A stretch of DNA of 64,000 nucleotides from an uncultured Candidatus Saccharibacteria bacterium (lineage in GTDB: Bacteria; Patescibacteriota; Minisyncoccia; 2-02-FULL-40-12; GWA2-44-9): contig CAZENF010000003.1 in the NCBI GenBank assembly GCA_964513645.1, forward strand, positions 26,425 through 90,424. The letters run 5' to 3'. The stretch's first letter is position 1. Every line of letters begins with the position of its first letter. Positions 45,511 through 63,998 of this stretch are shown piece by piece. A program made the position numbers and the translations under genes. A model generated the notes under the pieces. It saw nothing but the letters and a program-made list of their open reading frames with translations, was not told the DNA's origin and searched no databases.

Positions 45511-45537
45511 AAAAATCCCCCAGAAGGAGGATTTGTT
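45511..45537. terminator. bidirectional terminator
   Basis: aaaaa-atccccc-agaa-ggaggat-ttgtt between convergent genes. Confidence 0.5.
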
Positions 45538-46134: not shown

Positions 46135-46192
46135 GGTTTTGCCCCGCCCATGGTTAAAAGTGCTTCATATATTTTATCACCAAATTCTATAG

Positions 46193-46750: not shown

Positions 46751-46751
46751 T

Positions 46752-47249: not shown

Positions 47250-47313
47250 AAGTAGGTATGATTATAACTAAAAAAACACCGTTTGTCGATGTTTTCTTAG
47301 TTTTTAGCCTTGC

Positions 47314-47763: not shown

Positions 47764-47866
47764 TTTTATTAAAAGTTTTAATTATTTTTTTCGACCCTAT
47801 TATATTACGTATTATACAACATTTTCGGTGCCATTCAAAAAGGCAAATAAAAACCGCTTTCGCGGT

Positions 47867-48298: not shown

Positions 48299-48360
48299 TT
48301 GAATCTTTTAGTTGTAAAAGAGATATAAAATTATGTTAAATAAATTTATCCAATTTAGCA

Positions 48361-48397
48361 AGTAAAAACCGGAGCCCCGCCACAGGCGGGGCTCCGG
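48361..48397 (-). terminator. strong GC-rich hairpin terminator
   Basis: ccggagccccgcc-aca-ggcggggctccgg (13-bp stem) with a T-run on the minus strand. Confidence 0.65.
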
Positions 48398-48411
48398 TTG
48401 GTCCTTTTTAA

Positions 48412-49266: not shown

Positions 49267-49440
49267 TTGTACTGACTGTAGCCGTGTTTGTTTATAAAAC
49301 CAGCTCTGCTAGTTTTAGCTCAAAAACAAGGCTTTTTATAGTGTTTTACATACTTAAGACGAGACGACCGGGTGAATATTACACAAAAACGGTCCAACAA
49401 AAAAGAGGCACTTTTGAACCCCTTTTTTGTTCAGAGATAT

Positions 49441-49746
49441 TTATTGCTGATAATAGTACCAGTTTTGGCCGTTGCCCATCATGTTGTTGCCTTGCATCAT
49501 CCGCGCTCCGCCCTGCATCATATTGCCGTCATAACCTCGGTAGTAATTTCTGAATTCGGCTTTAAATTCACCGACCTTAACTCCGATACAGAAAACAATC
49601 ACAAATGAAACTAAGCAGAAAAGAATTTTAAGCATATAGTGCTTGCGCCAGTGATAACCGCCGTGCATCCCGCCTGACCAACCTTTGCAGGACGGGCAGG
49701 CGCACCAACTCTCTCCTCCGCCGTTTTTGTTTTGTTCGTCCGTCAT
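49441..49746 (-). CDS. hypothetical small membrane protein with Gly/Met/Gln-rich tail
   Basis: CxxC..C N-terminus, one TM helix, MMQGG repeats. Confidence 0.35.
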   Translation of the reverse strand: MTDEQNKNGGGESWCACPSCKGWSGGMHGGYHWRKHYMLKILFCLVSFVIVFCIGVKVGEFKAEFRNYYRGYDGNMMQGGARMMQGNNMMGNGQNWYYYQQ

Positions 49747-49834
49747 AGTATTTAAATTTTTTGTTAAATTTTAACTCGACCCTTTTGTAATTGTATCACA
49801 AAAATTAATTTATGTTCAAAAGAAAACCGGCATC

Positions 49835-50041
49835 TTAAGAGCCGGTATCGGGCCAATGGTCAAGAGCCATTTCGGTTTGGATGGAGGTAAGAGCATTGGT
49901 TTTAAGGTTTCTCAACCTGGCTAAACATTCAGACTTATTTAACAAAAAACTCTGGCCGCTTAATGGGTCTAAGAATTCAGCATAAACATTCTGACCGATA
50001 GTCTTGTAGCCAAGAAAGTTAACCTGTGCCTGATAATCCAT
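49835..50041 (-). CDS. hypothetical small protein
   Basis: ORF only. Confidence 0.25.
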   Translation of the reverse strand: MDYQAQVNFLGYKTIGQNVYAEFLDPLSGQSFLLNKSECLARLRNLKTNALTSIQTEMALDHWPDTGS

Positions 50042-50187
50042 GTATGATGCATATAAAGCAACTTCCTAATCTATAATCTTGTAAAATCTGTCTTGTCAAT
50101 TATGATTTTCGGGTTCTATTTCCCGGGTTGAATTTAATTTATTTTTTAGGTAGAATAATTATTGTAATTTGTATATTCCGAAACGGG

Positions 50188-50208
50188 CCATTGAGCTACG
50201 CCGGAATA
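50188..50208 (-). repeat. 21-nt inverted copy of the 5' end of the downstream tRNA gene
   Basis: ccattgagctacgccggaata is the exact reverse complement of tattccggcgtagctcaatgg at 50417..50437. Confidence 0.7.
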
Positions 50209-50419
50209 AGAATTCCGGGGCTCTCCAATAAGGGTGGGCAAGTAGCGAAATGGGCGAAATACAAATGTCTTTGTATTTCGCGGGTTTTTCAGCAGAAAAA
50301 CCCAAGTTTTCAAAAAATAAGCGACGGCGCAATTTTTTGAAAAAGCGGCTCAGTCCTGAGCGTGAGCGAAGGACATCCGCTCTGCCATGCTATCCGGAAT
50401 AAAAATTGAAAATTTTATA

Positions 50420-50680
50420 TTCCGGCGTAGCTCAATGGTAGAGCGGCTCCCTGTGAAATGAATCGCAGCTTTCCATCGAAAGGTGGATTGAAACACTTCG
50501 GGATATCGGTGAAGCCCTAATTCGAAAGAATGGGTAATACCGAGGGAACCCGCAAGGGGCACCGTAGAGACTAGATACCGAAGCACCCTTTTTGGGGTGA
50601 TGATATAGTCCACACCATACGAAAGTATTGGGCAACGTGTAAGGAGATGGTTCCAGGTTCGAGTCCTGGCGCCGGAGCCA
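50420..50680 (+). tRNA. intron-containing tRNA, best fit tRNA-Asn(GUU)
   Basis: 5' exon 50420..50453 (TCCGGCG-TA-GCTC-AATGGTA-GAGC-G-GCTCC-CTGT). 3' exon 50640..50680 (TAA-GGAGA-TGGTT-CCAGG-TTCGAGT-CCTGG-CGCCGGA-G-CCA). The spliced anticodon loop CUGUUAA, U1-A72 and G73 fit Asn. Thr(UGU) is the alternative if the splice site is read 2 nt upstream. Confidence 0.7.
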
Positions 50681-52228
50681 AGAAGGATGAACATCTGCGG
50701 AAGCAGGTGTTTTTCCTTTATTAGCTATGTTTTTTGCCGGTTCGAAAGTGGAATTCAGCTTTGGCATCCACTCTGCCAAAAATTCGAACGCAAATGTGTA
50801 ATTTGCGCTTATTTTATCTGCATCCAATGTAAGGTTCGAAAATACATAGCTCAACAGCAACCGGCGGTCCTCAACAGTCGCTTTCTCGCTCTGATAAATC
50901 TGCTTGGCTTTCAACGCGAGCTCGTGAATGGCAAAGCCAGCGGCATAGTATTGCGTGTTTGATTGGTCGAGCTTTCCGAGCTTCTCGAGGATGTTTTCTT
51001 TCTCTTCTGTGTATTCTTTGAATTTGCGCTCATAGAATTCCGGCGCAATCTTGCCGTCTATCTTATCCTCGTAGATTGCTTCCAAGCGGCGCTGAATGCG
51101 CTCTGACTGCGTTACAAGCTCGCGCTTCTGTGCCTCGTAGTAATTTATTTCTTCGGCGTGGCTCTCTTTGAGCGCCTTCTCGAGCAAGCGCAACACACGC
51201 TCATTCTTGGGCGCTACGCCATCGAAGAATGGAAAGAGTTGTTCTTCCACCTTCTCCTGTCTGATGGTCCCTTTTCGTGGGCAACCCTTGTAGTGATTGC
51301 AGTCGCCATACCAGTGGCCTTTCTTGGTATACCAAGTGATAGTGCCACCACAGTCGAGACATTGGACCTTTGCTTTGAACACAGGCAGATGCTTTCGATA
51401 TACAGGGGCTTTGAGTTTCCTTGCGAGCTTTGCCTGCACTTCTTCGAACAGCTCTCTTGAGATTATCGGCTCATGTTCACCCGGATAGATTTCATCTTTC
51501 CATCGGACCTTGCCGTAATAGAAAGGGTCTGAAAGCAAATCGTGCATCCTGCTTTTTCCAACCTTGCCGCCATTTCGGTTTCTCAATCCTTCCTTATACA
51601 TCGTGTCAACGAGAGAGTGCGTTGAATGATTGCCTGAAGAATATAGCTCGAACATTCTGCGGATGTATGGCGCCTTCTCCGGGTCAATGAGATGAATCCG
51701 GTGCCCCTTGTCTCCGTCCGACTTATAACCAAGCGGCGGTTTCGTTGGCAGCCATCCCTGTGCCAATTTTTCTTTCTGTCCTTTCTTCACTTCTTCGGAG
51801 AGGTTGTTGGTGTAGAAGCGAGCAATAGCAACTTTCATATCCCAAACCAAATTTTCGTGGGCCCGGGTGTTTTTGTTCAATACGAAATTCTCTTTTACAA
51901 AGTGAACCTCGCGCTTCGGGTCCGCTTTCACCCAGTCATCAATCGTGCTGGCGTCTTTCAGATTTCTTGTAAGGCGGTCAATCTTTTCACAAGCGATGAT
52001 GTGGACCTTGTGCTTCTCGGCATACTGCATCATTTCGTTGAGAGATTTGCGAATCTGTTTACCGCTTGCCGATTCAGTTATCTTGTAAACTTTCGGGACT
52101 ACAAAACCATGTCTGTCCGAGTAGTCCTTGAGCAGCTTTTCCTGCGCTTCCAATGAATAGCCGGTTTCTTCCTGTTCTTTGGAAGAGACACGGCAGTATA
52201 TGAGTGATTTTTGAGTAGTTATTTCCAT
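50432..52228 (-). CDS. large serine recombinase (resolvase/invertase catalytic domain + recombinase domain + zinc ribbon + coiled coil)
   Basis: N-terminal LIYCRVSSKEQ and KIDRLTRN catalytic-Ser motifs, and the CLDCGG...CNHYKGC zinc ribbon. The last ~85 codons of the ORF are antisense to the tRNA 3' exon and intron, so the true C-terminus is uncertain. Confidence 0.8.
   Translation of the reverse strand: MEITTQKSLIYCRVSSKEQEETGYSLEAQEKLLKDYSDRHGFVVPKVYKITESASGKQIRKSLNEMMQYAEKHKVHIIACEKIDRLTRNLKDASTIDDWVKADPKREVHFVKENFVLNKNTRAHENLVWDMKVAIARFYTNNLSEEVKKGQKEKLAQGWLPTKPPLGYKSDGDKGHRIHLIDPEKAPYIRRMFELYSSGNHSTHSLVDTMYKEGLRNRNGGKVGKSRMHDLLSDPFYYGKVRWKDEIYPGEHEPIISRELFEEVQAKLARKLKAPVYRKHLPVFKAKVQCLDCGGTITWYTKKGHWYGDCNHYKGCPRKGTIRQEKVEEQLFPFFDGVAPKNERVLRLLEKALKESHAEEINYYEAQKRELVTQSERIQRRLEAIYEDKIDGKIAPEFYERKFKEYTEEKENILEKLGKLDQSNTQYYAAGFAIHELALKAKQIYQSEKATVEDRRLLLSYVFSNLTLDADKISANYTFAFEFLAEWMPKLNSTFEPAKNIANKGKTPASADVHPSWLRRQDSNLEPSPYTLPNTFVWCGLYHHPKKGASVSSLYGAPCGFPRYYPFFRIRASPISRSVSIHLSMESCDSFHREPLYH
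50454..50639 (+). ncRNA. group I self-splicing intron (small IC3/Azoarcus-like) in the tRNA anticodon loop
   Basis: R-like CCGTAGAGACTAGATACCG and S-like GATGATATAGTCC elements form P7 (AGACUA/UAGUC). Q-like ACCCGCAAGG and P-like AATTCGAAAG elements. P1 can form between exon CUGU and intron GCAG with the U.G pair at the splice site. P2 ccatc-GAAA-ggtgg. Omega G precedes the 3' exon. Confidence 0.7.
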
Positions 52229-52390
52229 AAATGCACGAAAGGGACAGCTATGGTTGACCCAATTCCGCGCTCCCGAAGGATTGCCTCACTGGCATAGCTG
52301 CCCCTTTCGGGCAACGAGGCAATAAAAAAATTCGGGGCGTAATCGGAAACCGGGTCAACGAATATATCATAGCATTTTTCAGAGTAATTC

Positions 52391-52744
52391 TCAAATCAAT
52401 CCCTTTATTTTATAAGCAAGTTCGACAAACTTGCCGCGGATTACAAAGTCCGGTATGACCATAAACTGTCCGTTCTCATCGGAATGGAATTTTACGGCCT
52501 CCAACCCCTGTCTGTGAATTGATAATAACTTTTGGTCCGGTAGAAAATCCTGTGTAAGCAACTGAAACCCCATACTTTCCGTGAGCTTCTGTGGAGTTTT
52601 TGCTGTCTTCGGCGAATAGCCACATTTACGCATTGCTGCACCAACATTCCCACCATTATGTAGGATTTCTGCAAGTGCGAGTTTCTGCTTTATTGTGCCT
52701 TTTATCTGATATTTCATAGGTTTATTTCCACCAAAATCCACCAT
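52391..52744 (-). CDS. phage terminase small subunit-like HTH protein
   Basis: NGGNVGAAMRKCGYSPKTAKTPQKL resembles the Terminase_2 N-terminal HTH (g.n.teAa..aGYs.ktA). Confidence 0.4.
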   Translation of the reverse strand: MVDFGGNKPMKYQIKGTIKQKLALAEILHNGGNVGAAMRKCGYSPKTAKTPQKLTESMGFQLLTQDFLPDQKLLSIHRQGLEAVKFHSDENGQFMVIPDFVIRGKFVELAYKIKGLI

Positions 52745-52752
52745 TTTTACTA

Positions 52753-52980
52753 TCAGCGCATCCTGTATTTTTTAGCCATTCTTCTACGCATCTTGGATAA
52801 TTCGAATTCACGCATTGCTAACTGCACACTTTTGACGAATCTATCTTCCGGAGAAGATTTACGAGTAATGGGTCTTATCTTCTTTATTGGATTGGATTTG
52901 ATAGTTTTCATTGTTTCTGTAATTTTCTTTATATTTCTTTGAATTTCTTTGGACAAAGTTTCGTTCGGAAAACCGAACAA
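52753..52980 (-). CDS. hypothetical small basic protein
   Basis: ORF only. Lys/Arg-rich. Confidence 0.3.
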   Translation of the reverse strand: MFGFPNETLSKEIQRNIKKITETMKTIKSNPIKKIRPITRKSSPEDRFVKSVQLAMREFELSKMRRRMAKKYRMR

Positions 52981-52985
52981 GGTTA

Positions 52986-53495
52986 TTACGGCGGCCGAAA
53001 CATTGTCATCTTTTTTGCCAAATTCACTCTACCCCTTTGCACATTTGCTTGTTCTTGCCTCCGAACAAGTTGTTCGTCAGTTGGAACAATAAGTTTTGGC
53101 AGATGAACAAATTGTTCGGCTTCGTAGATATTCTTTCGTCCTTTCTCGAATATCCACAGATAATGAACAAGTGTTTTTCCACGACCTCTTTTTACGAATC
53201 CTTTGTTTTCCAAACCTGCCAGAGTTACCTGCAATTTGCCTATAGACCAGTTTATTTCCTTACGGAGCTCTCGAATGGTTGCAAAAACTATCGCGTAATT
53301 TTCCTTTTGCCTTTTATCCCAACCTGCTTCCTGAACCAGTAAAAGGTAGAGGACAGTTTCATTCTCATTGAGGAGTTTCAACAATGCCGGCAGGATATAC
53401 CTATACTGTAGAAAGAAACCTGTTTTTTTCATCATAGTCATTTTTGTTCTTCTCTCGGTAGTGAATTCTCGCCAGTAAATCAAAGTAACCGACAA
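52986..53495 (-). CDS. winged-helix protein, possibly replication initiator/replisome-organizer-like
   Basis: LLLVQEAGWDKRQKENYAIVFATIRELRKEINWS...LENKGFVKRGRG pattern. The start is probably internal (MMKKTGFF). Confidence 0.35.
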   Translation of the reverse strand: MSVTLIYWREFTTERRTKMTMMKKTGFFLQYRYILPALLKLLNENETVLYLLLVQEAGWDKRQKENYAIVFATIRELRKEINWSIGKLQVTLAGLENKGFVKRGRGKTLVHYLWIFEKGRKNIYEAEQFVHLPKLIVPTDEQLVRRQEQANVQRGRVNLAKKMTMFRPP

Positions 53496-53598
53496 GATTT
53501 TTCGTAATTTCAGCCACTTCGCCCAGCGTCAAATCCTTCCCATAATCTTCTTTGAGAATCTGCTGCATTTCACGGATTGTCGCTTCGCTAATAGCCAT
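53401..53598 (-). CDS. hypothetical small protein
   Basis: ORF only. Overlaps the upstream ORF's annotated start. Confidence 0.25.
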   Translation of the reverse strand: MAISEATIREMQQILKEDYGKDLTLGEVAEITKNLVGYFDLLARIHYREKNKNDYDEKNRFLSTV

Positions 53599-53600
53599 AA

Positions 53601-53858
53601 TTACTCCCGGGCGTAAAGCCGGGCCTTGATAGTCCGTAGGGCTCCAAAATAGGCCTGCGGTTCGACCTTGATTCCACCGCGCCAGTATTCGTTCACCACT
53701 TCCTCGAGCTTGCTGTCCTGCTGGAAAACAAACTCGGCCTTGCGAGGATTCTGTCTTTCAATGGCTTCAAGAGGATGCGACAGCAAAATAACCGCTGCCA
53801 GTCCGAGGTCGGCGGTTGAGTAGAATTTTTCTTGTCGCGCTTCTTTTTTCATAGTCAT
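53601..53858 (-). CDS. hypothetical small protein
   Basis: ORF only. Confidence 0.3.
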   Translation of the reverse strand: MTMKKEARQEKFYSTADLGLAAVILLSHPLEAIERQNPRKAEFVFQQDSKLEEVVNEYWRGGIKVEPQAYFGALRTIKARLYARE

Positions 53859-53937
53859 TGATAATCAAAAAACCTGCATCTTTATGATTGCAGGTTCGAC
53901 TTCCGGGCGACATGTTCTTTTATTTGGACTACATAAA

Positions 53938-54702
53938 TTACACAGAGTTTCCTTTACTCATTCGTCTCACGATAGTGCGCAAGGTTTCTTCGCCAACTTT
54001 TTTACCAGTTTCCTTGCTGATGATTTCGGCTATGGCTGCATATTTATTTCTGTAATTACTGACCTGTTTCTTGAGCTCCGAAGCGTCCATAAAGGAATGG
54101 CGTTGCCATGCTCGGTAAATTCCTTTGTGGCGCTCTTTTTTGTCTTTGGAATATCCACGCACTCGAGATTCTTGATGGCCAGCCATCATCATTCGCATTA
54201 GCCCATATTTGGTCCGATAGATGGACTTGAAGTAAGTCAATACTGCCTTTTCCGGCAGGTCGGGACTTATAACGAACAGGGCGCCTTCGGGGTAATCTTT
54301 TTTCAAATTAGCTAACTCTTTTTCGCCAACTGTGTTCAAACTATGCGCAGAAATCCCAAACGGCGTGCGAGCCATTATCTCTTCAGCTTCTTTGCGGTCA
54401 CCGACAATGTAAGACGAAATGAAAACTGTAAAATCGCCGGAATCAAATTGCAAATTCCCGAATTGGTTTTTTATGATAGTAGAGCCCATGTCTGCCAATT
54501 TCAAGCAAGCATTGCGATACTTCTTTTTGAATTTTGGAAGTGTCTCCACATACCACTTTCCGCTATCGCGGATGTTCTCGAATCCTTCTCGCGGTATTGA
54601 AAAAAGACCGCGTTGGTTGCGAACCTCCAAAAGAAAGAGTGAGTTGGATTCCAAGCGCTCCAAAAGTTTGGAGTATCTCGATTGTTTCATTTTCATTGTC
54701 AT
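53938..54702 (-). CDS. hypothetical protein
   Basis: 254-aa ORF. No motif recognised. Confidence 0.35.
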   Translation of the reverse strand: MTMKMKQSRYSKLLERLESNSLFLLEVRNQRGLFSIPREGFENIRDSGKWYVETLPKFKKKYRNACLKLADMGSTIIKNQFGNLQFDSGDFTVFISSYIVGDRKEAEEIMARTPFGISAHSLNTVGEKELANLKKDYPEGALFVISPDLPEKAVLTYFKSIYRTKYGLMRMMMAGHQESRVRGYSKDKKERHKGIYRAWQRHSFMDASELKKQVSNYRNKYAAIAEIISKETGKKVGEETLRTIVRRMSKGNSV

Positions 54703-54844
54703 TCTTACTTGTAAAATAGCAATTTTATGGCTTTATCTCAACTCAAAACGGCATTGAAAAAACTCTCGGGAATTGATAAGATGAAATTGCACAACTGAAT
54801 AAAGCTCGTGAGAGCAGGACCTACAACCCTCGGTAACCATCCCG

Positions 54845-55315
54845 GTGGCATGGTCTCAAAGTCGGATAAGGCGCAGAGAACCCGTCATGTGGTTGCCTTA
54901 TCCGCCTTATCGGGAAACCGGTAAGTCCACGAAAGTGGAGACCCGTGGCGGGCTTTGTGCGTTCTGCGGACCGCCCGGGCGTTCGAGATTCAATCTCACG
55001 CCCATGAAAAAACTACCATCAAGAGACAAAGTATTTTGGAAAAACTTTTTCTACGCACTTTTGATATTTCTGTTTGCCGTAGTAATTTTCACTGTTGAAA
55101 ATAATGCCACTGGTGATGCTCCTACCCCTTTGAGATTCTCTGATTTCACTTCAACGCTTGGACTGGTTGGATTCTTTGCGATAATCGCATGCTGTTATTT
55201 CGTAGCCATGCGATTTGTTCGCTCAAAAAAGATAGACGAGTTTGTTGAAAAGAAGGGACTCACTTACCAAGCGTTCAGAGAAAAATACGGAGAGTTTTTG
55301 GACTACATAGATTGA
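54845..55315 (+). CDS. hypothetical membrane protein
   Basis: Two TM helices. The true start is probably internal (MKKLPSRDK). Confidence 0.3.
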   Translation: MAWSQSRIRRREPVMWLPYPPYRETGKSTKVETRGGLCAFCGPPGRSRFNLTPMKKLPSRDKVFWKNFFYALLIFLFAVVIFTVENNATGDAPTPLRFSDFTSTLGLVGFFAIIACCYFVAMRFVRSKKIDEFVEKKGLTYQAFREKYGEFLDYID

Positions 55316-55416
55316 AAAAATAAACCTTGAGCTATGTGATGTAAGATAAGGGGGTGCGGCTGCCGTATGGCAACCTTTTTATTTTTGTTGTAAACTTATG
55401 GTAAGTCGGTATTTTT

Positions 55417-55617
55417 ATGAAACGAAAGCCGAAGAATAGCAAAAATCAGACCTCGCACGATGTTTTGACATTGAAAGAAGCGTGCGAGTTATTGAATTGT
55501 CATCCAAATACACTTCGTAATTGGGACAACAAAGGTGTGCTGCGAGCAATAAGGTTTGGTAGTCGTGGGGACCGGCGCTACCGCAAGCAAGATATTTTGA
55601 AGCTGATAAAAAAATAA
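55417..55617 (+). CDS. excisionase-family (HTH_17/MerR-like) DNA-binding protein
   Basis: LTLKEACELLNCHPNTLRNWDNKGVLRAIRFGSRGDRRY is typical of Xis-type HTH. Confidence 0.55.
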   Translation: MKRKPKNSKNQTSHDVLTLKEACELLNCHPNTLRNWDNKGVLRAIRFGSRGDRRYRKQDILKLIKK

Positions 55618-55624
55618 GAGCTAT

Positions 55625-57337
55625 ATGGCACGCAAAATAAATTACGACAACTGGTCAAGAGAAGAATTGGAAAAGGAGCTTCGCCGCTTGAAAGAGACGA
55701 AGTATGGTCTTGTTTGGCATCGAGACCTTCCCGAAGAAAAGATTGATGTGCTTATCAATCCCGATGCTCGCACGCCAAATGAAATGTTCCCGAACGAGAT
55801 GGCAGGCAAACCATTTCCAGTTTTGAAAGAAGCAAAATCGAAAGAGGTCAACGGAGATAAAGATAAGCGAATCAACTTGCTTATCGAGGGAGATAATTTT
55901 CATTCACTCGCCGTTCTCAACTTTTCTCATCAAGAAGCGGTGGACCTGATTTACATCGACCCCCCTTATAACCGAGGTGTGAAAGGTGGCAATGATTTCC
56001 GCTATAACGACAAATTTATTGATAGCGAAGACCCTTTTCGGCACAGCAAATGGCTTTCCTTTATGGAAAAAAGGTTGAAGCTGGCAAAGAATTTGATGAA
56101 AGCAACAGGCGTTATTTTCATCAGCATTGACAATACAGAGCAAGCGCCACTGCGCTTACTGTGTGATGAAATTTTTGGGGATAAGAATTTCGTTGGCACT
56201 TTGATTTGGAGAAAAAAAGAAGGTGGCGGCCAAGCTGACGCATATTTTGTTACCGAACATGAATATGTTTTGGCCTACGCAAAGTCCGATAAGTTTCAAT
56301 GGAAGGACGAAGAAATTCCAGTTGATGAAGCGGAATACAACAAGGAAGACGATGAGGGTAAATTCACAGCCGTAAAGTTGGCGAAATGGGGCAACACCGC
56401 TCGAAGAGAGGACCGCCCAAAGATGTATTTCCCTATAAAGTCCCCGGATGGCAAAAATGTTTATCCCATTGCACCCGATGGTGGTGATGGGCGCTGGCGT
56501 GTAGGCAAAAAACGGATGGATATGTTGGTTGAGAAAGACCTTGTTTATTGGCAACAGAAAAATGGCAAGTGGATACCCTACGAGAAGATTTATTTTGATG
56601 GTGATGAAGTCAAGAAAATAAAGGAGAGAAGTATTCTGTTTGACCTTGCCACAACCGCTGACGGAACCAATGAGCTTACGGAAATTTTCGGTAAGAAGGA
56701 TATTTTCGAAAACCCGAAACCAACAGAGCTCATCAAATTCTTTCTCCGTTATGGTGCGGACACTAATGCTGTTGTGCTGGATTTCTTTGCTGGTTCCGGC
56801 ACCACCGGCCAAGCGGTAATGAAAGCAAACCAAGAGGACGGCGGTAATCGCCAATTCATACTGTGCACCAATGACGAGAATGGTATTTGCACGGAAGTTT
56901 GCTATCCACGCCTCAAGAAAGTTATCAAGGGATACAAAAATCCCAAGAATAAAAATGTCGATGGTCTTGGTGGTAATTTGAAATACTTCACTTGCGACTT
57001 CGTAGAAGCAGAGCCAACGGACAGGAATAAAAGAAAGTTGGTCAACGAATCAACGGATATGCTTTGCATCCGAGAGAATGCTTTTGAGTTGGTGCAAGAT
57101 GGGACTGACTTCAAGATTTTCAAGAACGGCGCAAAGTATCTTGGTATCGTCTTTCACGAGGATGCTATTGATGATTTCAAAAAGGCCATAAAGAAAATGG
57201 ACGGCAAATTCAATGTGTATGTGTTCTCGCTGGGAGATGACCCACACGAGAAGCAGTTTATGGATGTAAGAGAAAAGGTCGCTCTCTGTGCCATACCGGA
57301 GGTCATCTTGAAGGTGTATAGAGAGATTTTCAAATAA
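55625..57337 (+). CDS. mod: Type III restriction-modification Mod subunit (beta-class N6-adenine DNA methyltransferase)
   Basis: Motif IV LIYIDPPYN early, motif I LDFFAGSGTTG late (beta order). 570 aa. Immediately followed by res. Confidence 0.8.
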   Translation: MARKINYDNWSREELEKELRRLKETKYGLVWHRDLPEEKIDVLINPDARTPNEMFPNEMAGKPFPVLKEAKSKEVNGDKDKRINLLIEGDNFHSLAVLNFSHQEAVDLIYIDPPYNRGVKGGNDFRYNDKFIDSEDPFRHSKWLSFMEKRLKLAKNLMKATGVIFISIDNTEQAPLRLLCDEIFGDKNFVGTLIWRKKEGGGQADAYFVTEHEYVLAYAKSDKFQWKDEEIPVDEAEYNKEDDEGKFTAVKLAKWGNTARREDRPKMYFPIKSPDGKNVYPIAPDGGDGRWRVGKKRMDMLVEKDLVYWQQKNGKWIPYEKIYFDGDEVKKIKERSILFDLATTADGTNELTEIFGKKDIFENPKPTELIKFFLRYGADTNAVVLDFFAGSGTTGQAVMKANQEDGGNRQFILCTNDENGICTEVCYPRLKKVIKGYKNPKNKNVDGLGGNLKYFTCDFVEAEPTDRNKRKLVNESTDMLCIRENAFELVQDGTDFKIFKNGAKYLGIVFHEDAIDDFKKAIKKMDGKFNVYVFSLGDDPHEKQFMDVREKVALCAIPEVILKVYREIFK

Positions 57338-57341
57338 ATTT

Positions 57342-59573
57342 ATGTGGATTGAATTCAAAGATTATCAAGAAAAAGCCATTGTCAAATTGAAGCAAGAGGT
57401 CAATGACCTCTTGGAGGCCGATGGTAATAAAATTTGCATATTCAAAGCTCCGACCGGCTCCGGTAAGACACTGATGATGGCCGAGTTTTTGAAGCGCCTT
57501 ATTGATTCGAGAATTGACGACAAGAAGTTTTCTTTTATTTGGATTGCTGTGAACAAGTTGCATGACCAAAGCCGCAATAGCTTGAAAAAATACTATGAAC
57601 CACTTGGTATTGCTCTCAAGTGTTCTTATTTCGATGACTTGGATGACCGAAAAATTGGTCCGAATGAAATCCTATTTTTGAACTGGGCAAGCATCAACAA
57701 GAAAGACAATGTGTATGTTCGAGAAAATGAACGAGACAACAACCTCTCGAATATCATTGCACGCACCAAAGAAGAAGGTCGGTCAATCATTTTGATAATT
57801 GATGAGAGCCATCGAAATGCAGAAACAGAAAAATCAAAAGAGCTTATTGATGACATTGGCCCGAAAATCACCATAGAAGTTTCAGCTACGCCGCAGCTCA
57901 AGGGAGTATTTCGTGGTGTGGAGGTTGAACTCAAAGCCGTAAAGGATGAGGGAATGATAAAGAAAGAGGTTGCAATCAACCCGGGATTTGAGACCCTCAA
58001 ACTCGATAAAAAACTTGCTGACAAAACAGCCGATGAAATTGTTGTTGAGGCCGGATTGAAAAAGCGCCTTGAGCTCGCCAAGCAATACGCAGCCGAGGGG
58101 TCAAATGTGAACCCACTCACGCTTATTCAGATACCGGATGCTCGTGCCGGATTGGATAAGAAAGACGCTGTGATTCAGCTTCTTGCTAAATATGGAATTA
58201 CGACAGAGAACGGCAAGCTGGCAATTTATTTGTCCGACAAAGACAACAAGGTCAACCTTGAGAACATAGAGAAAAATGAAAACGAGGTTGAGGTGATGAT
58301 TTTCAAACAAGCCATTGCTGTGGGTTGGGATTGTCCCCGTGCTGCAATCTTGGTGTTATTCCGCGAGTGGAAGAATGTGGTTTTCTCGATTCAAACTATC
58401 GGACGCATTATGCGCATGCCGGAGCACCACCACTACAACAGCTCGGAGCTCAACATGGGCTATGTATACACGAGCTTGAGCGACATCGGTATCGCAGAGG
58501 ATATTTCAAGAGAATACATCACTGTTTTTGAGGGCAATAGGCGTAAGGATTACAAAAACATTGACCTCGCCTCTGTTCACTCAAAACGCTTCCGAGAAGA
58601 AACTCGATTGTCATCTGACTTTGTGCCGATATTTTTCAAAGCAGCAGATGAATTGAAATTGAAAAAGAGCATCTCGCTCAAGCACAGCATCGTAGATACC
58701 AAGCTCATTGCAAGCGGCAAAATTACAGATGTAGATAAAGAGGCAAAGAGTATTGAAAAGAAAGGCACGCTGGATATACCAAAGAATGAAGTCGAGCTAC
58801 AAAATGCCTTCGACTACTTCGCTCGAGAAAATCTTGCTCCCTTTGCACCGGAACTACGCTCGATAAAGCGTATCAATGATTCTATCTATCGTTTCTTCGA
58901 TAAAGAATTCAAAATGGGTGTTGATGAATGGCCGAAGGTGCAAGCAGTGGTCTTGGCAGAGGAAAATCGGCAGAAAATGGTTGATGTTATCAATCGTGCA
59001 AAGGAGCTCTACCAAGATGTTGTTGGTAGAGGTAAACAAGAGTTGGTTGAAAACGAAGAGCCGTGGAATGTGCCGGAGACCATCAACTACAACCTGACCT
59101 TCACGAAGAAAGATTATAAGAAATCAATTATCCAGCCATACTACGCAAGGACAGGCAATGGCAACCTCGAGCTATTCGAAGAAGACAGCGACATCGAAGT
59201 GGACTTTATTGCCTACTTGGAAAAAGCAAAACAAGTGAAGTGGTGGTTCAAGAATGGCCGACAGGATGGCTCATATTTTGCCGTGCCATACACCGAAAAT
59301 GGCATTGAGAAGCCCTTCTATGTCGATTTCGTTGTAATGCTCTCTGACGGCAAAATAGGCCTGTTTGACACGAAGGGTGGCATCTATGCCAAGACGGCCA
59401 AAGAGCGCGCCGAGGGCCTCGCTGCCTATATCGAAAATGAGAATAAGCACGGCAAGAAGTTGCTTGGCGGTATCGTGCTGAAAGACAAAGGTAGCTGGCG
59501 ATACAGCGATAGCAAGAAATACTCTTACGACCCCAAAGACCTTACCAAGTGGAAGTTTTTGGACCTCAACTGA
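57342..59573 (+). CDS. res: Type III restriction enzyme Res subunit (SF2 helicase + C-terminal PD-(D/E)xK nuclease)
   Basis: Helicase motif I FKAPTGSGKT and motif II IIDESHR. C-terminal EVDF...LEKAK nuclease-like motif. 743 aa. Confidence 0.75.
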   Translation: MWIEFKDYQEKAIVKLKQEVNDLLEADGNKICIFKAPTGSGKTLMMAEFLKRLIDSRIDDKKFSFIWIAVNKLHDQSRNSLKKYYEPLGIALKCSYFDDLDDRKIGPNEILFLNWASINKKDNVYVRENERDNNLSNIIARTKEEGRSIILIIDESHRNAETEKSKELIDDIGPKITIEVSATPQLKGVFRGVEVELKAVKDEGMIKKEVAINPGFETLKLDKKLADKTADEIVVEAGLKKRLELAKQYAAEGSNVNPLTLIQIPDARAGLDKKDAVIQLLAKYGITTENGKLAIYLSDKDNKVNLENIEKNENEVEVMIFKQAIAVGWDCPRAAILVLFREWKNVVFSIQTIGRIMRMPEHHHYNSSELNMGYVYTSLSDIGIAEDISREYITVFEGNRRKDYKNIDLASVHSKRFREETRLSSDFVPIFFKAADELKLKKSISLKHSIVDTKLIASGKITDVDKEAKSIEKKGTLDIPKNEVELQNAFDYFARENLAPFAPELRSIKRINDSIYRFFDKEFKMGVDEWPKVQAVVLAEENRQKMVDVINRAKELYQDVVGRGKQELVENEEPWNVPETINYNLTFTKKDYKKSIIQPYYARTGNGNLELFEEDSDIEVDFIAYLEKAKQVKWWFKNGRQDGSYFAVPYTENGIEKPFYVDFVVMLSDGKIGLFDTKGGIYAKTAKERAEGLAAYIENENKHGKKLLGGIVLKDKGSWRYSDSKKYSYDPKDLTKWKFLDLN

Positions 59574-59574
59574 T

Positions 59575-60354
59575 ATGAATTCATTCAAAGACATTGCATA
59601 TCAAATCTTGCAAGAAGCGGGCAAACCTCTTCACAGCAAGGAAATAACAAAAATCGCTCTTGAGCGTGGCTGGTTGAAAACTGCGGGTAAGACACCGGAG
59701 GCCACCATGAACGCTCAAATCGTGGTAGACATCAATGCGAAGAAAGATGCCTCAAGGTTTGTAAAAACTGCGCCATCAACATTTGGTATCAACCCGAGCC
59801 CCACCCTACAAGTGAAAGCGGCTGACAAGGTGAAAGTTTTTGAAGCCCCTCGTTTGGAAAAGAAATGGAAAGTTTCTGCAAATATCTCGACCAAACAGAA
59901 AGGAGATATTGCCGAAGCTCGCATTGCAGAGCTCATCACTTTGTATGGCGATACCACTTTGTCATGCTACAAACCAATTTCTGATGACGAAGGGATTGAC
60001 CTTATCGTGAAAGAGAAAGGTAGTTTGCGGACAATGTATATCCAAATCAAAAGTCGCTTTGGAGATAATCCGGACGATATTTTCACAGCAACCGCAAAAG
60101 CAGGCACACTTGCAGACAATTACTCGATGGCCATAGTGTTTTGCTTTTTCGACACCGAAGAAGGCGATGTATGGGACTTTGTGTGGTTTGTGCCGGCACC
60201 GGATTTTATCAAGATGGCCAATAAGTTGGATGGTGGAAAGATGTTTGGTTTTGTTGCTGGCCGACAAAAGAAAGAATCAAACAAGTGGGACCAGTATTTG
60301 ATTGATAAGCGAGATTTGGCAAATGCCATTCTCGCTCAAATGAAACGGATATGA
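59575..60354 (+). CDS. HARE-HTH domain protein fused to a PD-(D/E)xK nuclease-like domain
   Basis: N-terminal DIAYQILQEAGKPLHSKEI...TPEATMNAQIVVDI...RFVKTAPSTFGI fits HARE-HTH. C-terminal AEARIAELI / DDEGIDLIV / YIQIKS fits E...D...QxK. Confidence 0.5.
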   Translation: MNSFKDIAYQILQEAGKPLHSKEITKIALERGWLKTAGKTPEATMNAQIVVDINAKKDASRFVKTAPSTFGINPSPTLQVKAADKVKVFEAPRLEKKWKVSANISTKQKGDIAEARIAELITLYGDTTLSCYKPISDDEGIDLIVKEKGSLRTMYIQIKSRFGDNPDDIFTATAKAGTLADNYSMAIVFCFFDTEEGDVWDFVWFVPAPDFIKMANKLDGGKMFGFVAGRQKKESNKWDQYLIDKRDLANAILAQMKRI

Positions 60355-61025
60355 TTCAATTCGACTTTGTAAAAATGCTCTGGCCGCTGTGGGTGCTTAT
60401 AGGAGTGCTTGTAGTTACTCGCGTTGTTATTGAAGTGGTCATACCTGACCTTTTTCATAGTTGGCAAAACCGAAGGAAGTTTCGTGCAGGAGAGAAATGG
60501 CGTTCTGATAGAGAGCTCTTACAGTGGCTCCGCGGCATGAAGCCGGCAGAGTTTGAGGATTATATTGCCGACCTCTTTTCTCGTTTGGGATATAAGACAC
60601 AAGCCACTGGTAAATCACACGATGGAGGCATTGATGTTATTGCAGAGAAAGACGGCAAGACAAGCTATATTCAATGCAAGAAATTCATCACTCAAGAGGT
60701 TACTGTTGGAGCGGTCCGAGATTTCTACGGCGCTTTGGTTGACCATGTGGGTAATGGCAAAGGTTATTTCATCACTACAAATAAATTTACCCTTGAGGCC
60801 GAGAAATTCGCCGAGGATAAGCCGATTGAGCTCGTAGATGGGTTTGACCTTGTTCGCTATATCCGCATGACAAATAAAGATACCGAGACCCTGAAAACTA
60901 TCCAAACAACACCCACTAAATGCCCGGAGGATGGTGGCACGCTTGTAGAGCGCACAGGTAAATTCGGAAAATTCTTGGGTTGCTCAAATTATCCAAAGTG
61001 TCGTTATACCGCGGCAATCAAATGA
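60351..61025 (+). CDS. membrane-anchored Mrr-type restriction endonuclease catalytic domain with C-terminal topoisomerase-type C4 zinc ribbon
   Basis: N-terminal TM helix. Mrr_cat pattern (FEDYIADLFSRLGY...SHDGGIDVIAEKDGKTSYIQCKKF...VRDFYGAL...GYFITTNKFT). CPEDGG...CSNYPKC zinc ribbon. Confidence 0.65.
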   Translation: MIQFDFVKMLWPLWVLIGVLVVTRVVIEVVIPDLFHSWQNRRKFRAGEKWRSDRELLQWLRGMKPAEFEDYIADLFSRLGYKTQATGKSHDGGIDVIAEKDGKTSYIQCKKFITQEVTVGAVRDFYGALVDHVGNGKGYFITTNKFTLEAEKFAEDKPIELVDGFDLVRYIRMTNKDTETLKTIQTTPTKCPEDGGTLVERTGKFGKFLGCSNYPKCRYTAAIK

Positions 61026-61026
61026 C

Positions 61027-62688
61027 ATGGAAAAAGATTTTTTATTGTTCAATGATTTTTTCAAAAAATTTGATGAGCTTGGAAAAGGAGAATGGATAAC
61101 CGCTTACTCATCGAACGACAGAGATAACCCAAAAGAGTGGGCCACTTTTTTCTGCGCCCTTGTTTCCAATAGCCACATTGAGAAGTCCTTGAAAGACCCA
61201 TCGTGGGATTTGACCATTGGTAGAGGTTTGCCCGGCTTTTCTTTTACATGGAAAGATGGCAAACAAATAGGTAGTTATTCAAAGATTGCAGATGAAGGTA
61301 TAGAGCCGCTCGTGATGAGTCGAAGTTTTCATGGAATGAAAGATGGTTACTGGGAGGTTTCGGAAGAATTTCGCTATTACTTCAACCTCTACGAAGACAA
61401 AAGAAATAACAAATTTATTTTGATTGATGATAATGGGGATGATGAAGATGTAATTTCAATGTCAGAGAATGAAATAAGAATCAAAACCCGTCTTATCAAA
61501 GAATTTGCGGCTGCCAAAAAGATGCACCTTGCCATATTTTTTGATTTCATCAGATTTTCCCCGAAAACCATTGAAGAATTGGACATCAAGGAATACCACG
61601 AGCATAAAACAGGCGCGGACTTCGTGTATTCAATCGGTGCAAGGAATTGGGATGGATTCGGAGAAGATGGCAGAAAATCAAATGGTTTTCTGATGGGCAA
61701 GAAGCTAATCCCCGGTCTGAAAGATTTTGCTCCAAAAATGTTTGATTACGAGAATAAACAGTATGCAGATTTCGCTATTGGTGTTGATGAGAATGGAAAA
61801 GAAATAAATTTCACTTCTGACGAAGAGAAGTTGGCTAACTACTTCGGAAAAAATAAAGGTGCCCCACTTTATGTAACTCCAGTATTTTTCAAGAAAGAAG
61901 TGCTATCAAAATACTACTCGCAGCCAGAAAAATACTCGGTTGAAGATGGCTACCTGCGTTGTGGAGGCATGTGGGGCTTGCGAATGGATGATAATCACCC
62001 GAATTTTGTTATGGTATTTCTCGGTGATTTGGGGCACTTGTCCTACAAAGAGCAGCTCTATTGGAAAGGTTTCAATGTGGCCACAAAAGAAAAGATAAGC
62101 TACACCGCTTTTACGAGAAGTTTTGAAGGTCAATTTTCAGACCCAGAAAACCCTGCCTTATTTTTCAAACAAAAACTTGATTCCTTCCAGAAGGAGTGGG
62201 AGAAAAAATTTGCTTGGAAACTTTTCCGCCCATTATCTCAAGGTGATGAACATCATCTCAAGACACTGCGAGTGCCTTTGACAAACGAACAAAAAGAGTT
62301 TGATGAGCAAATTCTTTCGCTAACAAAAGTTTTTATAGATTCACTCAACGAACAAGAATTGGCGAAAGGACTGGTATTGAAAGACGGTGCAAAGGGCCTT
62401 GATAAGTTGGAAGTGTTTTTTCAGTCCAAAAATGTAAGATTTCGCGGCATGATTGAATTTTTGCGTGACCTACAAGAGTTGAGGTCAACAGGCGTTGCTC
62501 ATCTGAAAGGCAGTAAATACGATAAAATCAAGACAACTTTTGGTATTGGCCAAAAGGACTTGTCCAAAGTTTTCGTTGATATTTTAGTAAACTGTATAAC
62601 CACAATGAATTCTTTGGAAAATCATTTTGTTCAAAAGGATGAACATTTGAAAGCTGTCCCCGGTATATCATCAGACAAGAGCCAATAG
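61027..62688 (+). CDS. hypothetical 553-aa protein with C-terminal HEPN-like Rx5H motif
   Basis: ELRSTGVAHLKG near the C-terminus. Translationally coupled to the upstream genes (2-nt spacing). No other motif recognised. Confidence 0.4.
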   Translation: MEKDFLLFNDFFKKFDELGKGEWITAYSSNDRDNPKEWATFFCALVSNSHIEKSLKDPSWDLTIGRGLPGFSFTWKDGKQIGSYSKIADEGIEPLVMSRSFHGMKDGYWEVSEEFRYYFNLYEDKRNNKFILIDDNGDDEDVISMSENEIRIKTRLIKEFAAAKKMHLAIFFDFIRFSPKTIEELDIKEYHEHKTGADFVYSIGARNWDGFGEDGRKSNGFLMGKKLIPGLKDFAPKMFDYENKQYADFAIGVDENGKEINFTSDEEKLANYFGKNKGAPLYVTPVFFKKEVLSKYYSQPEKYSVEDGYLRCGGMWGLRMDDNHPNFVMVFLGDLGHLSYKEQLYWKGFNVATKEKISYTAFTRSFEGQFSDPENPALFFKQKLDSFQKEWEKKFAWKLFRPLSQGDEHHLKTLRVPLTNEQKEFDEQILSLTKVFIDSLNEQELAKGLVLKDGAKGLDKLEVFFQSKNVRFRGMIEFLRDLQELRSTGVAHLKGSKYDKIKTTFGIGQKDLSKVFVDILVNCITTMNSLENHFVQKDEHLKAVPGISSDKSQ

Positions 62689-62846
62689 CTGACTAACTTG
62701 GCTTATTACAAGGTCAGGAACAGGCACGGCTCTGGACCAATCGTAAGTTCGAAACGCGTGCTGCCATGCGAGCAAGACAAGACAGCTTTAGAACTTTACA
62801 AAATACAGCCAAAGCGGTATTTTGTTTATAGTTTTTAAGGGAGAGA

Positions 62847-63149
62847 GTGTATATGAACAGATCCTTAAATCTTGGTAAGCAGAATCAGTATAGAGAGATT
62901 TACCTTGAAGTGCATCGAAGAATGGTTGCTTGCGGCCTTGAAAGAGAGAGTTTGGCAGCAATGGCAAGGGCTCTACAACACGAACTCCTGTGTCCGAGTG
63001 ATACGATATCAAATGCTAAACCTCTTGAAGTTATAATGAGAGCCGTTACTGCAGTTCTTGAGGGAGATCCTGAATCAGCAAATTATATAAAGGAAAAACT
63101 AATTTTAGGTGGTAATGATTTATTAAATGATTTACCTAATACCGACTAA
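62847..63149 (+). CDS. hypothetical protein
   Basis: ORF followed by a terminator. Confidence 0.3.
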   Translation: MYMNRSLNLGKQNQYREIYLEVHRRMVACGLERESLAAMARALQHELLCPSDTISNAKPLEVIMRAVTAVLEGDPESANYIKEKLILGGNDLLNDLPNTD

Positions 63150-63165
63150 CGTCGGTTTTTATTTT
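63141..63165 (+). terminator. rho-independent terminator
   Basis: accgac-taa-cgtcggt followed by ttttatttt. Confidence 0.6.
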
Positions 63166-63223
63166 GCTCGAGACGTGTTGGAGAGTAAAAATAAACAATA
63201 GCTTAAAAACCCTCCTTAAAACA

Positions 63224-63250
63224 AAATCCCTGTACGGGGATTTTATTTTT
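63224..63250. terminator. hairpin terminator for the convergent helicase gene
   Basis: aaaatccc-tgtacg-gggatttt flanked by T-runs. Confidence 0.5.
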
Positions 63251-63260
63251 TGGAAATTGT

Positions 63261-63998
63261 TTACCTCGACCTGCTCCTTCTCCAGCGGGGAGGGCCTTTT
63301 CGTAAGTAGCTGTTGCGTCCGAATCTTTTAGGAGGTGCATCTGATAGGAATGTCTGGCCGCCATGAGATTTTACCGGAATTTCTTTTCTAACTAACCGTT
63401 CTATGTCCCGAACATCACGTTTTTGGTCGGGCATGGCAAATGAAATGGCTTTTCCGCTGTCTCCGGCTCTGCCTGTCCGGCCGATCCGGTGGACATAATC
63501 CTGCACATTATCGGGTAATTCAAAATTTATTACCATTTTAATTCCCCGGACATCTATGCCACGGGCGGCAATGTCAGTGGCGACTAAAATACGATATGCG
63601 CCGGATTTGAATCCTGACATCGCGGCCATTCTCTGGCTTAGTGAGCGGTCTGAATGAATTTCGACTGCTTTGTAGTGCATGTCCTGGAGGGCTCCGCAAA
63701 CTTTGCGGGCGCCATGACGGGTGCGCGTGAACAATAATACTTGCCCGGGATTTTCTTCCAGAATTTTTAAAAGTAAAGGAAACCTGTCTTGTTTTTGAAC
63801 CAGAAATATTTCCTGGTCAACCAATTCGGCTGCAGTTCCGGCCGGAGCAACTTCAACCCGGACCGGCGAGGTCATATATGCGGCGGATATCTTAACTATC
63901 TCACTGGGCATGGTAGCCGAGAACAACATTGCCTGACGCTCTTGAGGTATAAGACTGAATATTTTTCTTATTTGAGGCTCAAAGCCGATATCAAGCAT
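63261..63998 (-). CDS. DEAD-box RNA helicase, C-terminal part (N-terminus lies beyond the window end)
   Basis: Motif VI HRIGRTGRAG and a basic C-terminal tail. The ORF is open at the window edge. Confidence 0.8.
   Translation of the reverse strand: MLDIGFEPQIRKIFSLIPQERQAMLFSATMPSEIVKISAAYMTSPVRVEVAPAGTAAELVDQEIFLVQKQDRFPLLLKILEENPGQVLLFTRTRHGARKVCGALQDMHYKAVEIHSDRSLSQRMAAMSGFKSGAYRILVATDIAARGIDVRGIKMVINFELPDNVQDYVHRIGRTGRAGDSGKAISFAMPDQKRDVRDIERLVRKEIPVKSHGGQTFLSDAPPKRFGRNSYLRKGPPRWRRSRSR

Follow-up and report, generated by a model that had tools for sequence, protein, structure and literature searches.

Large serine recombinases (LSRs) of the phiC31, Bxb1 and A118 type are built from a resolvase catalytic domain, a recombinase domain and a zinc ribbon. 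Serine integrases are major tools of genome engineering, and their choice of direction is a central question. The 64,000-nucleotide stretch analyzed here (contig CAZENF010000003.1 of assembly GCA_964513645.1; hereafter the window) carries an integrative element with an enzyme of this modular build, whose insertion likewise entails no long duplication and a core of only 4-5 nt; a small gene co-conserved with the recombinase could serve as the directionality factor, as in those modules. The locus is unlike them in that the enzyme inserts at the 3' terminus of a tRNA gene, and in that the attachment site of the element (attP) appears to lie within the recombinase reading frame, from which integration would remove 33 codons while fusing the remainder to the antisense strand of the tRNA.

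Insertion at tRNA 3' termini is usual for tyrosine integrases and not for serine integrases; the target of the tyrosine integrase of phage Mx8 is also the 3' end of a tRNA gene. Mx8 resembles the window element in having attP inside its integrase gene: PMC6070905, citing Tojo 1996 and Magrini 1999, describes integration within the coding sequence as providing the gene with a new 3' end and the enzyme with altered activity. Mx8 is, however, a complete tailed phage with a tyrosine recombinase, whereas the window holds a small element without virion genes that encodes a serine recombinase. The "suicidal" integrases of the SSV1, pTN3 and pT26-2 type also have the attachment site inside the integrase gene, which integration leaves in two pieces at opposite ends of the element, an arrangement that a review holds to be exclusive to Archaea (PMC8371274). 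Those are tyrosine enzymes reduced to two inactive halves, whereas the bacterial serine recombinase of the window would lose a tail of 33 amino acids (aa) and keep every recognized domain. No report of a self-splitting serine recombinase was found in the literature searched, the coverage of which was incomplete, and this is absence of evidence only; self-splitting integrases would with such an enzyme extend beyond the archaeal tyrosine class.

With regard to cargo, the likeness is to defence islands, P4-like satellites, phage-inducible chromosomal islands (PICIs) and elements at restriction-modification (R-M) hotspots: a variable slot for R-M and nuclease genes lies between conserved backbone genes, and its content differs between sister elements. 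The Patescibacteria host, the unrelated backbone, an RNA of the LOOT family at the head of the cargo, and a sister element that carries purM-purL in place of defence genes distinguish the locus from P4/PICI-type elements. Its value is raised by the split-gene integration by a serine recombinase, by the link to the LOOT family, and by the definition of an element family in Patescibacteria.

It is highly probable, in our judgement, that the window contains an LSR-driven integrative element at the 3' end of a tRNA-Asn gene, with attP inside the recombinase gene and a defence cargo. The LSR would have inserted 12,095 bp at the extreme 3' end of tRNA-Asn(GUU) in a Patescibacteria chromosome (Paceibacteria, near Yanofskybacteria). 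Integration would split the recombinase gene: its main part would stay beside the tRNA, whose antisense strand would supply a new tail, and its last 33 codons would be stranded 12 kb away, at the opposite end of the element; excision would rejoin this orphan tail in frame to position 50679 and restore a 550-aa gene. A leftward operon is predicted to end with the recombinase gene and to encode, ahead of it, a 254-aa protein, a DUF5659 protein, a 65-aa partner of the recombinase, a DnaD-like protein with a winged helix and two small proteins; its rightward counterpart would comprise LOOT, a small membrane protein, a helix-turn-helix (HTH) regulator, a Type III-like R-M pair, two PD-(D/E)XK-type nucleases and a HEPN-like 553-aa protein. 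Gene content, family, both junctions, the division of the gene and the LOOT association are all read from the DNA itself.

The divided recombinase gene and the ends of the element

The recombinase gene occupies positions 50432-52228 on the reverse strand, and its integrated (attL) form encodes 598 aa. The product matches Pfam Resolvase over residues 10-158 (6e-23; catalytic-serine motif YCRVSSKEQ in the translation), PF07508 (Recombinase; 4.7e-18), PF13408 (Zn_ribbon_recom) at 0.0015, which is below the cut-off of that model, and the integrase family phrog_95 over residues 3-499 (4.7e-85). Conservation ends near residue 500; the element encodes the protein down to position 50679, and the final 83 codons are the antisense strand of tRNA-Asn and its intron. 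That a serine recombinase stands beside a tRNA had been recognized in an earlier note on the window (below, the original prediction), and both partners are borne out, the tRNA as tRNA-Asn at 50421-50680.

This host tRNA-Asn(GUU), on the forward strand, is the integration target (attB side), identified by an Rfam intron match, by intron-less orthologues and by the identity of its 3' end. A group I intron of 185 nt (50455-50639) interrupts the otherwise intact gene precisely, in the anticodon loop between anticodon positions 35 and 36, according to the covariance-model match and to comparison of alleles (Rfam Intron_gpI 47.9 bits, E 1e-9, just below the gathering score of 50; P1 U.G pair at U50454). 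ARAGORN missed the gene when the window was scanned because the intron splits the anticodon loop; brute-force splicing followed by ARAGORN was uninformative, since the program accepts many false introns. The 3' half of the tRNA, used as query in a scan of one genome per species, finds its 3' end matched exactly in 24 Patescibacteria genomes (Nomura-, Adler-, Yanofsky-, Jorgensen- and Liptonbacteria and Minisyncoccia). About half of these have an intron at the identical position, and the others, intron-less, read CTGTTAA (...CCCTGT/TAAGGAG), which establishes the anticodon as GUU and the tRNA as Asn. In relatives of the element at intron-less tRNA-Asn, the recombinase enters the tRNA in the same frame and stops at an in-frame TAA from the antisense anticodon loop, so that their tails read ...LRRQDSNLQPTP before the stop; it is because the intron removes this stop that the frame in the window runs through the tRNA to 598 aa.

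The ends of the element were placed by comparison with 82 related loci, 80 of them from a metagenome scan with recombinase residues 1-499 (50-73% identity) and two from IMG/VR, both of which end at the recombinase. A search for repeats failed to find the ends, and in-register alignment of the far ends of the related loci revealed a conserved block, present in the window as well as in more than 20 of these loci. Its sequence codes for a peptide of fixed length, 33 residues after a leucine, with the consensus LAWRDSFRTFDWxKAxPxPELxxSQIxQLLALV followed by a stop, and its substitutions are synonymous or conservative (a Ser, for example, is TCC in one copy and AGT in another). In four loci (L048, L061, L062 and L079) the recombinase frame continues into the peptide, giving intact open reading frames (ORFs) of 555, 546, 565 and 572 aa, respectively, and the peptide occupies exactly the place that the tRNA has in integrated loci. 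These four are evidently copies in the attP configuration; L061 continues past the recombinase into a TrwB-like coupling protein, a mobile-element context. In the window, the orphan 3' end of the recombinase gene, 33 codons and a stop (LAWQHAFRTYDWSRAVPVPDLVISQVSQLLALV), lies at 62671-62772 on the reverse strand. Joining the two pieces yields an in-frame 550-aa protein ending ...ADVHPSW/LAWQHAFRTYDWSRAVPVPDLVISQVSQLLALV (the slash marks the joint), and this reconstructed attP joint, ...VHPSW/LAWQ..., agrees with the real intact genes. A search of 1.84 billion representative proteins returned 37 short ORFs (42-108 aa) that carry the 33-aa peptide, nearly all at the C-terminus; they have the appearance of what a gene caller is expected to produce at such far ends.

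Both junctions, with a GCTC/TGCTC core, are present in at least 18 integrated loci at a spacing of 7.4-12.1 kb. The common core in the window is GAGC, at 50675-50678 (attL), where it comprises the last acceptor bases, the discriminator and C74 of the tRNA, and at 62770-62773 (attR), host DNA resuming at 62774; the element therefore extends from 50679 to 62773, and the comparison of junctions places the crossover within the 4-nt core at 50675-50678. The mapped ends predict an attB junction ...GGCGCCGGAGC/AAGACAAGACAGC and an attP junction ...GCCATGCGAGC/CAAGAAGGATGAAC. That the junctions share only GAGC is compatible with the 2-nt crossover of an LSR without a long repeat, the reaction itself being deduced from the aligned sequences. 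So located, attP would lie inside the recombinase gene, 33 codons before the stop, from which it follows that integration splits the gene. Unlike attP in the described LSR modules, one arm of this site resembles a tRNA 3' end (TGGCTC...GGAC...TCGAAC), with five extra bases between GGAC and TCGAAC that shift the frame and turn ...DSNL into ...DSFRT. The attP half-sites of LSRs are about 5 bp longer than the attB half-sites in LSR-DNA structures, a difference to which the five extra bases may correspond by resemblance. An element-borne hairpin followed by a T-run (50689-50712, forward strand), found in a terminator scan, lies inside the recombinase reading frame and evidently provides the tRNA-Asn gene with a terminator; all related junctions examined have an equivalent hairpin at the matching position.

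The observation behind the original prediction is essentially right, and its reading of the locus as an integrated, defence-carrying element is supported. The extent that it assigned, 50420-62700, needs correction at both ends: the tRNA is host DNA, and the right end, which includes the orphan recombinase piece, is at 62773.

Several observations weigh against the explanation preferred here. The common core measures only 4-5 nt, so that the position of the crossover comes from comparison, there being no long repeat to mark it. None of the four contigs in the attP form closes into a circle; they could be tandem-array junctions, although the gene parts would in that event still be contiguous before integration. 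Neither an empty site nor an excised circle of this element was found, the nearest genomes being 77-82% identical (in the helicase to the right of the element) and different in gene order. Further short repeats lie close to the ends, one direct (12 nt; 50683/62635) and one inverted (13 nt; 50709/63087). The restriction subunit Res of the cargo is, at 743 aa, a short one, and only part of it is matched by Type III models. With regard to the repeats, both the 12-nt sequence, AAGGATGAACAT, and the inverted 13-nt sequence were considered as the ends and dropped, the conserved far-end block having given the true junction; repeats as long as these arise by chance in several control loci. The right end in the window has no tRNA 3' fragment, and IMG/VR gave no hit to either of two degenerate DNA patterns that represent the tail peptide.

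The exchange of C-termini may alter the activity or the direction of the recombinase, by analogy with phage Mx8. It is conceivable, though doubtful enough to be put forward only tentatively, that this integration-coupled remodelling constitutes a directionality or commitment switch, and that the LOOT RNA, as regulatory RNA of the element, acts as a gate for the cargo or late operon. In its episomal form of 550 aa, with the conserved LAW...LLALV tail, the enzyme would then drive integration into tRNA 3' ends; in its integrated form it would be inactive, prone to excision, or in need of the 65-aa partner. Rewriting of the C-terminus of an enzyme by integration, throughout a natural family, would offer a new control principle that is directly testable.

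Two recombinase-tail blocks about 1-2 kb apart are found in L048 (11546 and 12692), L059 (1209 and 2777) and L087 (1681 and 3518), which suggests tandem or successive insertions, or leftover tails. In L071, a 21-nt copy of the tRNA-Asp 3' end (344-364), with a terminator after it, is found 120 nt beyond the far-end junction of the element; it looks like a trace left when a different element inserted earlier at this tRNA. Just outside the right end in the window, a 98-aa ORF (62853-63149) has its own ribosome-binding site and terminator, no family match and no exact copy on record.

The element family and its possible origins

Nearly all related loci of sufficient length have a convergent tRNA gene that starts 54-63 nt past the equivalent of recombinase residue 499. 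The targets of the 82-locus family are mostly tRNA-Asn(GTT), with Gln, Asp, Lys, Glu and Ser also represented. A more distant serine recombinase stands beside the matching tRNA-Asn in six of the 24 species genomes, and also in a Yanofskybacteria relative (L117). This recurrent adjacency makes tRNA 3' ends the habitual target of this recombinase group, and tRNA-Asn a hotspot in the lineage. The cargo of the window is found at this tRNA in none of the 24 genomes, so that the uniform gene order across related genomes that was to refute the original prediction is not seen. The L117 element (14598-21221; also in L118-L120) is located at an intron-containing tRNA-Asn and has the same layout with a recombinase that is only 26% identical: a divergent LOOT RNA comes after the genes for a DnaD_N winged-helix (wHTH) protein and for one of 273 aa, and the cargo includes a GP3_package (small-terminase-like) protein.

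Clustering the ORFs of the 82 loci and then annotating them shows the replication genes of the family to be interchangeable; the alternatives to a rolling-circle Rep (REP_ORF2-G2P), which 20 loci carry, are a CHC2 zinc-finger primase, an NrS-1-like primase-polymerase, and Prim-Pol with AAA_25. Zot occurs in five related loci; this inovirus-type combination of Zot and rolling-circle Rep is absent from the window element, though present in some relatives. The cargo of the relatives was sampled as 93 ORFs beyond LOOT in 18 loci. Its commonest families are N6_N4_Mtase (five), ResIII (three), Eco57I (two) and HerA/DUF87 (two), C5 methylase and RE_endonuc being also represented, and L038 and L041 have homologues of the window's methyltransferase (Mod) and Res at the same position. 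Terminase, portal, capsid and tail families are missing from these 93 ORFs. Since the cargo of the relatives is without virion genes and their replication genes are of plasmid or inovirus type, the family would not consist of decayed tailed prophages; it has the character of small (7-12 kb) plasmid- or inovirus-like integrative elements of Patescibacteria, often with restriction-modification. A small mobile-element family with mapped ends and a cargo slot is thereby defined in a group whose mobile DNA and defence are poorly known.

The sole homologue of the 254-aa protein of the leftward operon led to a sister element, L121 (GCA_964444765.1, contig CAYUID010000002.1). The two elements share the 254-aa, DUF5659, 65-aa, 117-aa, membrane and 553-aa proteins at 57-81% identity, and LOOT as well. 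The L121 homologue of the 553-aa protein, 74-76% identical over 172-185 residues (blastp/tblastn), has the same distal position, which suggests that this is the conserved distal gene of the sub-lineage formed by the window element and L121. The L121 recombinase is only 44% identical and is located at tRNA-Gln(CTG). The restriction genes are replaced, between the unit of LOOT and the membrane protein and the 553-aa gene, by purL (large type, 1274 aa) and purM (L121 673-5784), with a GC content of 0.54 as against ~0.41 in the L121 element and its host. This purM-purL pair is probably metabolic cargo; a chimeric assembly is the alternative. A shared backbone with a different recombinase and different middle genes implies that modules are exchanged and that a cargo slot exists.

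These facts about the family bear on other explanations of the locus. A satellite or PICI-like element would excise and replicate only upon infection by a helper virus and would be packaged or exported by it, an inovirus-like relative being an example of such a helper. A length of 12 kb, the location of the integrase at a tRNA, a wHTH protein of replication-like type and the lack of virion genes would suit this explanation; the Zot and rolling-circle Rep of some family members indicate filamentous-virus machinery that could act as helper; and the 117-aa protein encoded next to the recombinase has an HTH and was likened to small terminases in the original prediction. That last label is not supported: the protein (52391-52744) matches no terminase model, nor indeed any model of Pfam, PHROG or NCBIfam. 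Scans of the window with hidden Markov models (HMMs) detected no packaging, capsid-redirecting or pri-rep module, no helper was identified, and the TrwB-like coupling protein in other relatives points to conjugative mobilization, not packaging. The satellite explanation is on balance unlikely. The original prediction also allowed for a degraded prophage, a once-complete temperate phage that lost its structural genes and persists as a defence island. Its observation that capsid, tail and large-terminase genes are absent stands: Pfam, PADLOC, PHROG and NCBIfam find no structural or terminase family among the tested ORFs of the window. The phage-type integrase and DnaD-like PHROG matches, the excisionase-like HTH protein and the listing of two relatives in IMG/VR could be cited for phage descent, but a decayed phage is scarcely credible in view of the sample of 93 cargo ORFs in 18 elements, which holds no terminase, portal, capsid or tail family, of the plasmid- and inovirus-type replication genes, and of the span of only 7.4-12.1 kb in complete elements with both junctions. 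The window element, moreover, is tightly packed with genes and has no pseudogene remnants of virion genes, and its orphan recombinase tail is intact.

That intact tail, in frame for rejoining, bears as well on whether the locus is a fixed chromosomal defence island, an immobile element whose recombinase is domesticated or a dead remnant. In its favour are the failure to find an empty site or circle of the window copy, an integrated recombinase with 83 aa of nonsense tail (a consequence of the tRNA intron), and a gene order around the locus that is rearranged relative to relatives. It is nonetheless very unlikely, since all recombinase domains and the catalytic-serine motif are intact, L121 is at another tRNA in another genome, and the family has made many independent insertions and has copies in the attP form.

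LOOT RNA and the two operons

Between the two divergent gene sets, and heading the rightward cargo operon, is a LOOT RNA (Rfam RF03000; 54816-54943, forward strand), a feature not mentioned in the original prediction. Its Rfam match (54818-54939) is full-length, covering model positions 1-121 with the same helices, at 62.6 bits (gathering score 46.4), and reaches 98.9 bits with our own covariance model, which was built from six copies. A promoter-like site, TTGAAA-17-TAAGAT with an extended TG (54754-54782), precedes the start of the RNA by ~30 nt, and a terminator scan finds no terminator between it and the membrane-protein gene; both features favour LOOT as a 5' leader, or processed RNA, of the rightward transcript. 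Rfam detects LOOT in five of the ten related loci scanned; our own model detects it in 21 of the 41 loci that extend 5 kb or more upstream of the recombinase, and also in L117 and L121. It is on the strand opposite to the recombinase, heading the cargo, in 19 of the 21, and on the same strand in L085 (5866-5992) and L088 (2637-2767), which are possibly rearranged elements. Over 22 copies, 94% of cells pair and 27 of the 31 pairs have compensatory changes; not one of 500 shuffles attains the observed covariation score or paired percentage, and slid controls are ~30-40% paired. Rfam lists LOOT only as a small RNA (sRNA) gene, whereas here it is tied to one integrative-element family, with fixed position and orientation; no description of its genomic context was found in the literature searched, discovery paper included, the coverage being incomplete. 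LOOT may control the rightward operon in cis, act as an immunity-type RNA, or control the life cycle of the element, hypotheses that, together with a first genomic context, give this orphan Rfam family something concrete to be examined.

The genes of the leftward backbone are all on the reverse strand. The first of its operon encodes the 254-aa protein (53938-54702), which has no HMM match and whose one homologue among 5.8 billion proteins is the L121 protein (81% identity). Next come the DUF5659 protein (85 aa; 53601-53858; Pfam 1.3e-7), found in 16 of the 82 related loci, and the 65-aa protein (53401-53598), which has homologues in 54 of the 82, at a median distance of 134 nt upstream of the recombinase, and is a candidate recombination directionality factor. 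The winged-helix gene (52986-53441) is listed as an ORF starting at TTG 53495; ATG 53441 is the more likely start. Its product matches phrog_186, a DnaD-like helicase loader (2.8e-8), and phrog_428 (3e-6), with a weak Pfam TrmB wHTH match, in agreement with the original description of a replication-like winged-helix protein; it is a candidate replication initiator or loader, and the HMM scans find no primase in the window element. A basic protein of 75 aa (52753-52980) has a single sub-threshold match, to Pfam DUF5889 (E 0.008, 16.7 bits as against a cut-off of 27.1), and the 117-aa HTH-like protein, directly upstream of the recombinase, is 64% identical to its counterpart at the same position in L121.

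The rightward genes, all on the forward strand, begin after LOOT with a 103-aa membrane protein (55005-55315), which has two hydrophobic segments in translation and is 58% identical to the protein in the same place in L121. A small DNA-binding protein of HTH_17/MerR type follows (55417-55617; Pfam 8.7e-12, PADLOC mad1 3e-9), with homologues beside mod/res in L038. The original prediction called it Xis-like; the HTH is confirmed, and since the gene stands at the head of a restriction operon, a regulator is as likely as an excisionase; the protein is probably the regulator of that operon, or else an excisionase. The Type III-like methyltransferase Mod (55625-57337; Pfam N6_N4_Mtase 1.2e-39, PADLOC MTase_III 2.3e-93) is separated by a 4-nt gap from the Type III-like restriction subunit Res (57342-59573), which has ResIII/DEAD and Helicase_C domains (Pfam ResIII 6.9e-20, PADLOC REase_III 1e-19) and a nuclease-like C-terminal region. 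The REase_III models cover only residues 150-388 of Res, and the NCBIfam BPTD_3080 match at its C-terminus is weak, far below the cut-off. Beyond Res are a nuclease with HARE-HTH and PD-(D/E)XK domains (59575-60354; Pfam HARE-HTH 3.2e-21, PDDEXK_5 2.3e-5, just under its cut-off) and an Mrr-family nuclease that has a membrane segment at its N-terminus and a zinc ribbon of the topoisomerase type at its C-terminus (60351-61025; Pfam Mrr_cat 6.4e-30, Zn_ribbon_Top1 2.1e-14; PADLOC PDC-S02, mREase_IV). Abutting or overlapping start and stop codons indicate that these two genes and the 553-aa gene belong to a single operon. The ~7 kb of defence genes originally proposed are thus accounted for, the 553-aa protein being without a library match, and the cargo may protect the host against phages.

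The distal gene (61027-62688) encodes this 553-aa protein, which has no match in Pfam, PADLOC, PHROGs or NCBIfam; comparison with PDB sequences gave one insignificant match per search (E 0.73 and 0.42), and fold searches of PDB and BFVD yielded no convincing neighbour. Its more than 1000 homologues, 50-73% identical, are distributed through Patescibacteria and some archaea, all of them unannotated and none with a Pfam match. Elsewhere these homologues stand alone, next to GmrSD, a Type I system or Hachiman, or beside AbiEii in a mobile element; in L004 the homologue is a single-gene insertion after a tRNA. The AF2 model (pLDDT 83.8) has a helical C-terminus, and this domain contains an R-x5-H motif in which R486 is nearly invariant and H492 invariant over 59 sequences. 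Foldseek matches to HEPN toxins are weak (probabilities 0.23-0.77, E 0.2-0.6). The protein is on this evidence a putative HEPN-type effector that belongs to no defined family, and a large unannotated protein family with a HEPN-like motif, recurrent in defence neighbourhoods, is thereby flagged. A pairing of HTH protein and 553-aa protein as in L002 was considered and dropped, the two HTH proteins not being specifically related.

The flanking chromosome

The remainder of the window is chromosomal, as had been proposed, with DnaG, sigma-70, ABC transporters/MacB, thymidine kinase and SNase to the left of the element and a DEAD-box helicase to the right; the check for a GC discontinuity that had been suggested shows none marked at the element. 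The right-flank helicase is 77-82% identical to helicases of Yanofskybacteria-like genomes, and synteny comparison finds other neighbours in these closest relatives. In the Yanofskybacteria-like L117-L120 (helicase 77% identical), MacB lies next to the helicase in the same orientation, whereas in the window (45510-63261) the two are convergent and 17.7 kb apart, separated by thymidine kinase, SNase, a number of small secreted proteins, the tRNA and the element. The neighbourhood has therefore been rearranged. Of the window proteins looked up by exact sequence, most have no record; the one Logan contig found (SRR12313479) is identical to positions 49182-50447 and stops inside the tRNA.

Immediately left of the tRNA region, a secreted protein of 284 aa (48412-49266) ends in a long Thr-Pro repeat (TPTPTATP...). 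The 5' end of the tRNA with three upstream bases (50418-50438) recurs as a perfect 21-nt inverted copy at 50188-50208, 209 nt upstream of the tRNA. Adjoining it is a 28-nt direct copy (50153-50180; 82% identical) of the region upstream of the tRNA (50397-50424). The two copies may be the relic of a rearranged or duplicated tRNA 5' end, or may mark an invertible segment.

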